Assembly: GCF_003334255.1 (NCBI RefSeq)
Contig: NZ_QOWU01000237.1
DNA: 458 nt
Strand: one strand, 5' to 3'
Origin: Escherichia coli
GTDB taxonomy: Bacteria > Pseudomonadota > Gammaproteobacteria > Enterobacterales > Enterobacteriaceae
Shown here: positions 1 through 458 of the stretch, piece after piece
How the letters are laid out: every line of letters starts with the position of its first letter
Position numbering within the stretch: the first letter of the stretch is position 1
Translations under genes and position numbers: made by a program
Notes under the pieces: model-generated
What the model was told of the DNA's origin: nothing
What the model saw: only the letters and a program-made list of their open reading frames with translations
Database searches by the model: none

Positions 1-16
1 AATTTGAGAGACTCAC

Positions 17-34
17 GAACAACTTTCGTTGTTC
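17..34 (-). other. Perfect 7-bp hairpin with GNRA (GAAA) tetraloop in the 23S 5' flank
   Basis: Seen in sequence: 17-23 gaacaac and 28-34 gttgttc are perfect inverted repeats around tttc. In transcript sense this is GAACAAC-GAAA-GUUGUUC. It is not followed by a U-tract, so it is not an intrinsic terminator. Inference: a structural element of the pre-23S leader near the region that pairs with the 23S 3' flank for RNase III processing. Confidence 0.5.
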
Positions 35-62
35 AGTGTTTCAATTTTCAGCTTGATCCAGA

Positions 63-75
63 TTTTTAAAGAGCA
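63..75 (-). promoter_or_regulatory. Spacer boxA antitermination element (Nus-factor binding motif)
   Basis: Seen in sequence: reverse complement of 63-75 is TGCTCTTTAAAAA, one mismatch from the rrn leader boxA consensus TGCTCTTTAACAA. It lies immediately downstream (in transcript sense) of a boxB-like hairpin. Established knowledge: rrn operons carry a second boxB-boxA pair in the 16S-23S spacer that supports processive antitermination through 23S. Confidence 0.7.
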
Positions 76-76
76 A

Positions 77-114
77 ATATCTCAAACATCACCCGAAGAT
101 GAGTTTTGAGATAT
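77..114 (-). promoter_or_regulatory. boxB-like RNA hairpin preceding spacer boxA
   Basis: Seen in sequence: 77-86 (atatctcaaa) is perfectly complementary to 105-114 (tttgagatat). In transcript sense the inner part is CAUC-UUCG-GGUG, giving a C(UUCG)G tetraloop with a short bulge. Its position 2 nt upstream of boxA in the transcript matches the boxB-boxA arrangement. Confidence 0.6.
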
Positions 115-148
115 TAAGGCAGGTGACTTTCACTCACAAACCAGCAAG

Positions 149-224
149 TGGCGTCCCCTAGGGGATTCGAACCCCTGTTACCGCCGTGAAAGGGCGGTGT
201 CCTGGGCCTCTAGACGAAGGGGAC
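149..224 (-). tRNA. gltT/gltU/gltV/gltW: tRNA-Glu, anticodon UUC, 76 nt, CCA encoded
   Basis: Seen in sequence: reverse complement of 149-224 is GTCCCCTTCGTCTAGAGGCCCAGGACACCGCCCTTTCACGGCGGTAACAGGGGTTCGAATCCCCTAGGGGACGCCA. It folds as a cloverleaf by hand: acceptor stem GUCCCCU/AGGGGAC, anticodon stem CCGCC/GGCGG with loop CUUUCAC (anticodon UUC = plus-strand gaa at 188-190), T-arm with GGTTCGAATCC, discriminator G, terminal CCA (plus-strand tgg at 149-151). Established knowledge: matches the E. coli tRNA-Glu carried in rrnB/C/E/G spacers. The specific copy cannot be determined from the window; if the source is E. coli K-12 in reference orientation, a minus-strand Glu-type operon would be rrnG (gltW), but that is inference only. 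Confidence 0.95.
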
Positions 225-263
225 ACGAAAATTGCTTATCACGCGTTGCGTGATATTTTCGTG
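224..263 (-). other. Extended imperfect hairpin abutting the tRNA-Glu 5' end
   Basis: Seen in sequence: outer stem 224-231 (cacgaaaa) pairs with 256-263 (ttttcgtg); inner stem 237-244 (tatcacgc) pairs with 248-255 (gcgtgata); 3-nt loop gtt at 245-247; asymmetric internal loop at 232-236. Position 224 is also nucleotide +1 of the tRNA, so the 3' strand of the hairpin in transcript sense runs directly into the tRNA. Confidence 0.5.
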
Positions 264-395
264 TAGGGTGAGCTTTCATTAATAGAAAGCGAACGGCCTT
301 ATTCTCTTCAGCCTCACTCCCAACGCGTAAACGCCTTGCTTTTCACTTTCTATCAGACAATCTGTGTGAGCACTGCAAAGAACGCTTCTTTAAGG
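225..395 (-). other. Internal transcribed spacer, proximal part (between 16S 3' end and tRNA-Glu)
   Basis: Seen in sequence: lies between the 16S 3' terminus and the tRNA on the same strand. From memory it matches the E. coli Glu-type spacer (transcript sense begins CCTTAAAGAAGCGTTCTTTGCAGTGCTCACACAGATTGTCTGATAGAAAGTGAAAAGCAAGGCG...). Boundaries follow from the two flanking RNA genes. Confidence 0.85.
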
Positions 396-458
396 TAAGG
401 AGGTGATCCAACCGCAGGTTCCCCTACGGTTACCTTGTTACGACTTCACCCCAGTCAT
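396..458 (-). rRNA. rrs: 16S ribosomal RNA, 3'-terminal 63 nt (partial; gene continues beyond the window end)
   Basis: Seen in sequence: plus strand 396-458 is taaggaggtgatccaaccgcaggttcccctacggttaccttgttacgacttcaccccagtcat. Its reverse complement ends ...GTAACAAGGTAACCGTAGGGGAACCTGCGGTTGGATCACCTCCTTA, the conserved 16S 3' terminus. It contains the anti-Shine-Dalgarno CCUCC (plus-strand ggagg at 399-403). Established knowledge: this terminus is nearly invariant in Enterobacteriaceae. Mature 3' end placed at 396. Confidence 0.95.

Follow-up and report, generated by a model that had tools for sequence, protein, structure and literature searches.

Two unlike hairpins in the 16S–tRNA-Glu spacer of Escherichia coli rrnB: a probable leader–trailer helix by-product and a predicted arm of an optional spacer block

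Introduction

What do two short inverted repeats downstream of an Escherichia coli 16S rRNA gene represent, in a spacer that is expected to pair in part with the 16S leader? The question was raised by a stretch of 458 nucleotides from E. coli (NCBI RefSeq assembly GCF_003334255.1, contig NZ_QOWU01000237.1), referred to hereafter as the window, which means this stretch at its full length. A previous reading of its letters, here called the original prediction, had pointed to two small hairpins within positions 266–392 and suggested that they may be alternative or transient folds.

The stem at which RNase III processes E. coli pre-16S rRNA was reportedly described by Young and Steitz in 1978. The 17S rRNA carries 115 extra nucleotides at its 5′ end and 33 at its 3′ end, and these ends are complementary (PMC3996153). 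Using truncation and compensatory mutagenesis, Warner, Bundschuh and Fredrick (2023) found the leader–trailer helix (hLT) to be absolutely required for active 30S subunits, the most critical pairs being those of leader positions −113 to −89 with nt 1548–1570, which correspond to spacer +6 to +28 (PMC10250234). In the same study, activity was abolished when the trailer was cut back to nt 1569 or further and was intact when it was truncated at nt 1584 or 1589; covariation was reported for the helix in 1441 sequences, with none for the stretch −99 to −96 paired with 1554–1557 (PMC10250234).

Materials and methods

Coordinates are those of the window unless stated otherwise. The transcribed strand is the minus strand, and spacer position +k corresponds to window position 396 minus k. 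The 16S leader, which lies outside the window, was supplied by the whole rrnB operon of E. coli strain FORC 064 in transcript orientation, in which the operon position equals 3959 minus the window position. The position of the RNase III cut on the trailer was inferred from the 17S ends in the literature (PMC3996153).

RNA folding was performed in three contexts, namely the spacer alone, a cofold of the spacer and a leader that begins at the P2 start, and a 1887-nt precursor running from P2 to the 5′ end of the tRNA. Minimum free-energy folding of a 1.9-kb precursor is unreliable for the body of the 16S rRNA; the leader–trailer helix is independently established.

Long-form spacers in other species were sought in a one-genome-per-species scan for a 16S end followed by 155–185 arbitrary nucleotides and the 5′ end of tRNA-Glu, which returned six loci only. 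The comparison of the first hairpin (H1) across genera rested on a sequence-only MAFFT alignment of five genera with one sequence each. Consensus folds of the five genera were computed with RNAalifold.

Results

Locus and layout of the window

The window shows E. coli rrnB in reverse complement and matches E. coli chromosomes at 100%. In the RefSeq annotation of strain FORC 064 it sits between murI and murB, flanks that identify the operon as rrnB. The transcript reads from the 16S 3′ end through a 171-nt spacer and tRNA-Glu into the 23S leader, with the following features.

396–458, minus strand: 3′ end of 16S rRNA, last 63 nt (...GGAUCACCUCCUUA); Rfam SSU_rRNA_bacteria, 61 bits, model positions 1471–1533, and RefSeq annotation of FORC 064.
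225–395, minus strand: 16S–tRNA-Glu spacer, long form, 171 nt; the same form in K-12 rrnB and rrnG, against 85 nt in K-12 rrnC and rrnE.
149–224, minus strand: tRNA-Glu (UUC); ARAGORN, and Rfam tRNA, 60.1 bits.
76–115, minus strand: boxB-like hairpin of 16 bp, downstream of the tRNA and upstream of StyR-44 in the transcript.
63–75, minus strand: spacer boxA (tgctctttaaaaa), likewise downstream of the tRNA and upstream of StyR-44 in the transcript.
1–71, minus strand: StyR-44/23S-leader region; Rfam, 81.5 bits, cut off by the window edge.

StyR-44, the spacer boxA and the boxB-like hairpin are known antitermination and 23S-leader elements. Rfam gave matches to SSU rRNA, tRNA and StyR-44 elsewhere in the window and to no family within the spacer (225–395) at E values up to 1.

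At the upstream edge of the spacer, positions 392–398 and 430–436 are perfectly complementary over 7 nt, so that the last three nucleotides of the 16S rRNA plus +1 to +4 (UUACCUU) can face AAGGUAA within the 16S rRNA (about nt 1502–1508). This pairing was present in the predicted fold of 16S 1490–1542 plus the trailer, and it may be due to chance or represent a precursor-specific pairing near helix 45.

The two inverted repeats

Both repeats lie where the original prediction had put them, as follows.

272–290, minus strand: H1, GCUUUC-UAUUAAU-GAAAGC, spacer +106 to +124; exact repeat, hairpin with pairing conserved across genera (see below).
377–391, minus strand: H2, AAAGAA-GCG-UUCUUU, spacer +5 to +19; exact repeat, apparently an incidental palindrome inside the trailer strand.

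On the DNA as given, H1 consists of gctttc (272–277) and gaaagc (285–290) around a 7-nt loop. For H2, the arms aagaa (378–382) and ttctt (386–390) around cgc had been named, and they are exact; the stem nevertheless has 6 bp rather than 5 (aaagaa 377–382 with ttcttt 386–391). Counted from the 16S 3′ end (at window 396), the named arm starts at +6 and the extended stem at +5. As both repeats are perfect palindromic stems, they hold on the minus-strand RNA too. Their placing in the 16S-proximal part of the spacer fits H2 but not H1, which lies 106 nt downstream in an optional block nearer the tRNA.

Two perfect hairpins of at least 6 bp with loops of 3–8 nt were found in 266–392, against 0.16 expected from dinucleotide shuffles (P = 0.008). 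A single perfect hairpin of at least 6 bp is unremarkable, with a probability of 0.15 of finding at least one in shuffled versions of 266–392 and an occurrence in 15–21% of shuffled spacers. One explanation to be weighed is that each of the hairpins arose by chance as a palindrome of AT-rich spacer DNA, free of selection at the RNA level. H2 behaves exactly as such a palindrome would, and the joint occurrence of the two speaks against chance as an account of the pair; for H1, the comparison across genera given below also argues against it. Folding energies also set the two apart, since H1 has a ΔG of −5.8 kcal/mol and H2 one of −0.8 kcal/mol.

The arms of H2 pair with the 16S leader

The following features of the spacer bear on its pairing with the leader.

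349–390, minus strand: trailer strand of the 16S leader–trailer helix (RNase III processing stem), spacer +6 to +47; predicted in the cofold and the full-precursor fold, with its partner, leader −89 to −131, outside the window.
362–363, minus strand: inferred RNase III cut between +33 (window 363) and +34 (window 362); from the 33 extra 3′ nucleotides of 17S rRNA (PMC3996153).

One continuous helix was predicted between spacer +6 to +47 and leader −89 to −131 both in the leader–spacer cofold and in the 1887-nt precursor, with pair probabilities of about 1.0 for +14 to +47, in line with the expectation that part of this 16S–tRNA spacer pairs with a leader beyond the window. When the helix is compared with the 17S ends (−115/+33, PMC3996153), the predicted −115/+31 pair leaves the 3′ end at +33 overhanging by 2 nt, as is typical of RNase III. 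The register from +6/−89 to +47/−131 likewise agrees with the critical pairs of the published model, in which the nucleotides of H2 belong to the trailer strand (PMC10250234).

Within this helix, H2 occupies nt 1547–1561, with its two arms next to each other on the trailer strand. The 3′ arm (+14 to +19) pairs with leader −98 to −104 at a probability of about 1.0, and the 5′ arm (+6 to +10) pairs with −89 to −93 at 0.65–0.82. The hairpin itself reached a pair probability of 0.01 in the spacer alone and 0.00 in both the cofold and the full precursor, so that folding of the complete precursor, which had been put forward as a check, went against H2 as a hairpin and in favour of leader pairing for both of its arms. 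The hairpin was predicted once the trailer stood by itself, with a probability of about 0.85 in the free 33-nt trailer and of 0.6–0.8 in the short-form spacer alone, and it returned to 0.00 when the leader fragments −115 to −67 or −115 to −1 were supplied, which represent 17S-like pairs of ends.

Natural variation leads to the same assignment. In K-12 rrnB and rrnG, a natural U15A substitution abolishes H2 (ΔG 0.0) and leaves the leader helix in place, because A15 pairs with U−99 instead of U15 with A−100. An H2-like hairpin is absent from the trailers of Tatumella and Avibacterium, in which the trailer sequence is different and still pairs continuously with a co-varied leader (whole operons; three taxa tested in all). 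Conservation of the H2 pairing was no better than in controls, with 46.7% of alignment cells paired against 28–54% in slid controls, for six distinct sequences.

Two polymorphisms among E. coli rrn operons fall in the trailer strand, U/A at +15 (window 381) and C/U at +21 (window 375). The former overlaps the stretch that lacks covariation support in Warner et al. (PMC10250234).

Beyond the main helix, the cofold of the rrnB variant of the window extended leader–spacer pairing to +51 to +72 (window 324–345), with the boxA region of the leader (operon positions 1883–1890). In K-12 rrnB and rrnG, +62 to +72 formed a small local hairpin instead, and the predicted extension thus depends on the variant.

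From these folds and comparisons, H2 appears to be an incidental, unselected palindrome within an essential helix and no functional structure of its own. It is not part of the published model of the helix (PMC10250234), relative to which it is a weak intrastrand alternative that is not conserved, and it would at most be a fleeting fold of a trailer freed from the leader.

H1 folds irrespective of the leader

H1 had a pair probability of 0.97 in the spacer alone, in the leader–spacer cofold and in the full precursor. Its position is well 3′ of the zone in which leader pairing has been defined by experiment, and the weak, variant-dependent contacts that were predicted further downstream reach about +72. 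Folding of the full precursor thus contradicted the notion of H1 as a fold that competes with the leader, since H1 formed there at the same probability and took no part in leader pairing.

These results bear on the proposal that both hairpins are alternative or transient folds in competition with leader pairing, for example as kinetic intermediates or switches during co-transcriptional folding and processing. H2 does overlap the trailer strand and does fold in the models that lack the leader, and the pairs −99 to −96 with 1554–1557, which flank its loop and roughly cover that loop plus the first two nucleotides of its 3′ arm, show no covariation (PMC10250234), so this short stretch may be open in vivo. 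Yet the leader is made about 1.6 kb earlier and is available when the trailer emerges, and H2 is weak, vanishes with the leader, is not conserved and is broken in functional K-12 operons; H1, for its part, is unaffected by the leader. We therefore regard the proposal as very unlikely for the pair. The description as alternative or transient retains a weak sense for H2, as an unselected alternative, and does not apply to H1, given its constant probability in every context and the covariation described below.

An optional block distinguishes long and short spacers

Alignment of long and short spacers delimited the following feature, inside which both H1 and a hairpin next to the tRNA are found.

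225–330, minus strand: optional long-form block, about spacer +66 to +171, roughly 106 nt.

The 171-nt and 85-nt forms of the K-12 spacer are alike to about +65, save for a few point differences, after which they continue with about 106 nt in the long form and about 20 nt in the short form. Of 5426 complete E. coli genomes, 2791 have the block and 2635 (49%) lack it; carriers have between 1 and 7 copies, the median being one. It is nearly invariant within the species, being at least 99% identical in 2775 of the 2791 carrier genomes. More than four copies per genome would mean that the block has spread, through gene conversion for instance, to operons other than the usual four with tRNA-Glu. 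A coding role was considered and rejected, the open reading frames being trivial (20–33 aa) and mostly overlapping the tRNA.

Homologous long forms were found in Pantoea stewartii, Tatumella morbirosei, Cedecea colo and Limnobaculum eriocheiris; the long form of Avibacterium is not homologous. Two metagenome scans, which gave either nothing or two chance matches inside a transporter gene, and a viral scan, which gave nothing, yielded no further long forms, and a scan of a plasmid collection returned one E. coli record only.

H1 is one arm of a Y-shaped fold found in five genera

The arms of H1 stay complementary across the homologous long forms, with GCUUUC/GAAAGC in E. coli, GGUUUU/AAAACC in Tatumella, CGUUUC/GAAACG in Cedecea, GAUUUUC/GAAAAUC in Limnobaculum and a shortened GAUU/AAUC in Pantoea. 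The six pairs comprise three that are invariant and three with compensatory double changes, and 100% of the cells were paired over the five genera. The sequence of the H1 loop is not conserved across genera, and the same is true of the other loops of the block. Within E. coli, one genome carries the uncompensated H1 variant G123A; otherwise, the two variants inspected were loop changes.

In the RNAalifold consensus of the five genera, H1 is one arm of a three-way junction.

265–322, minus strand: Y-shaped (three-way junction) fold, with closing stem GGGAGUGAG/CUCACCC, arm A GGC...GCC, and arm B identical with H1; RNAalifold, five genera.

This junction has a ΔG of −16.9 kcal/mol. Over the whole fold, 90.7% of the cells were paired, against 36–55% in slid controls, and seven pairs showed double changes. 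Its covariation score exceeded that of all 500 shuffles, a control that can overstate support when, as here, the sequences are few and related. G·U pairs in the closing stem and in arm A place the structure on the transcript strand. The outermost five pairs of the RNAalifold model (columns 15–19/79–83) were rejected, as they contain several unpaired cells and are incompatible with the outer stem of the hairpin beside the tRNA, a stem that has better support.

With three compensatory double changes and complete pairing in H1, and with the whole fold paired well above the slid controls, chance as the origin of both hairpins becomes very improbable. H1 is, to judge from the folding and alignment models, a stable, local and conserved RNA hairpin that is independent of the leader.

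Transcriptional signals were also considered at H1. A weak internal promoter, Pi, has been reported, and the idea that H1 supplies its −10 element by way of the loop TATTAAT was discarded for want of a consensus match. No sigma-70 promoter-like site with −35/−10 spacing was found at H1, and no intrinsic terminator with a GC-rich stem and U-run.

A second conserved hairpin abuts tRNA-Glu

The block contains a further hairpin.

223–264, minus strand: 42-nt hairpin abutting tRNA-Glu, part of the optional block; inverted repeats, ΔG −16.6 kcal/mol.

This hairpin ends exactly at tRNA-Glu, its last two paired nucleotides being nucleotides 1–2 of the tRNA. Its outer stem (223–232 with 255–264) has 10 pairs, four of them with double changes, and was paired in 100% of the cells over the five genera. 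Its place at the RNase P site suggests that it could affect the 5′ maturation of tRNA-Glu. In the intermediate cut by RNase III, the predicted probability of the tRNA acceptor stem was 0.3 with the long form against 0.1 with the short form, values too small and too dependent on the model to bear on a possible insulating role of the block.

On the plus strand, antisense to the rRNA, positions 237–255 carry a terminator-like stem and T-run, which is the mirror image of this hairpin. The site is not significant, with one plus-strand terminator-like site found against 0.6 expected in shuffles.

Discussion

H1 and H2 are different and unrelated things. In the explanation that we consider probable, H2 is a by-product to which the leader–trailer helix gives rise, and H1 is a real arm of a self-contained, discardable and optional block that plays no role in the 30S subunit. 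In the precursor and in 17S rRNA, the arms of H2 would pair with leader −89 to −93 and −98 to −104 within the helix that is the substrate of RNase III, and the hairpin would fold only if the 33-nt trailer lost its leader fragment, shortly before YbeY and 3′ exonucleases removed the trailer. The Y-shaped junction and the hairpin next to the tRNA would together fold the block of about 106 nt into a compact, self-contained domain, and by folding on itself the block may spare the helix upstream and the tRNA downstream from the extra spacer RNA. Selection would then keep the pairing of the block such that this RNA avoids competing with the leader–trailer helix or the tRNA cloverleaf; the role of the block would be insulating or neutral. 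Once freed by the RNase III cut at +33 and the RNase P cut at the tRNA 5′ end, the block would presumably be degraded. The original prediction thus finds partial support, being right about leader pairing, weakly right about H2 and wrong about H1.

The conservation of the block also raises the alternative that it has, together with H1, a specific function, which could lie in the 5′ maturation or yield of tRNA-Glu, in providing an entry site for RNase III or RNase E, or in the release of a stable trans-acting spacer RNA, for instance a sponge. The compensatory changes that the Y junction, H1 and the tRNA-proximal hairpin show in five or more genera are what such a function would lead one to expect, as is the constant inclusion of tRNA nucleotides 1–2 in the outer stem of the last hairpin, which abuts the RNase P site. 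The block moreover has local structure worth about 34 kcal/mol, which exceeds what a random spacer would show, and is kept nearly unchanged in about half of E. coli genomes. It is, however, missing from two of the four K-12 tRNA-Glu operons and from the other half of the genomes, it is dispensable for 30S activity (PMC10250234), its loops vary in sequence, it has no Rfam family and neither a promoter nor a terminator signal, and a search of the literature for such a role found nothing. On balance we deem a specific function unlikely. A stronger version, in which the block is a mobile RNA module that enterobacterial rrn operons have conserved for a separate function in tRNA-Glu 5′ maturation or as a stable regulatory RNA, would explain why the fold has been kept across genera even though ribosome synthesis can do without the block, and we hold it to be decidedly unlikely. 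The explanation that we prefer remains a discardable block whose pairing is maintained.

An optional block of the 16S–tRNA-Glu spacer, which rrnB and rrnG have and rrnC and rrnE lack, was reportedly described by Harvey and colleagues in 1988 as 'rsl'. Our block appears to be comparable, and it is probably this very spacer loop. Like rsl, it is optional by operon; here, about 106 nt are replaced by about 20 nt, the block is polymorphic between strains, and H1 lies inside.

A second comparison is offered by the intervening sequences (IVS) of enterobacterial 23S genes, which are optional structured insertions of about 100 nt that occur sporadically among operons and strains and are removed in processing, being excised by RNase III with fragmentation of the rRNA. 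These IVS are not known to have a function. The block is likewise optional, structured, variable between operons and strains, and removed in processing. It differs in its setting, as IVS sit inside mature 23S rRNA whereas the block belongs to a spacer that is in any case thrown away, and the block is not known to contain an RNase III site. The boxB–boxA elements of the spacer are similar to H1 and H2 in being small hairpins of the 16S–23S spacer of the same transcript; H1 and H2 differ from them in that neither has an adjacent boxA, the boxA- and boxB-like elements being downstream of the tRNA.

The term 'rsl' stands for the ribosomal spacer loop, a sequence found in rrn operons of E. coli (Harvey, Hill, Squires & Squires 1988, J Bacteriol 170:1235, cited in PMC4696680). 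In the literature consulted, which extends to that paper by its title, no description of the Y-shaped fold or of its homologues in other genera was found, nor was a role for the block in tRNA-Glu maturation or as a stable RNA. About 57 nt of trailer were kept by Warner et al. (PMC10250234), and the optional block consequently falls outside their covariation study.

The findings matter little for a region that is among the best-studied transcripts in biology, and H2 requires nothing beyond the known, essential leader–trailer helix. What is added is modest, namely that the long-known rrnB/rrnG block has a covariation-supported Y-shaped domain in common with Pantoea, Tatumella, Cedecea and Limnobaculum. 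This cross-genus fold is a small addition and not a new kind of element, the remainder being already known or ordinary. Should the block turn out to serve a separate function, it would provide an example of operon-specific heterogeneity in rRNA–tRNA processing.
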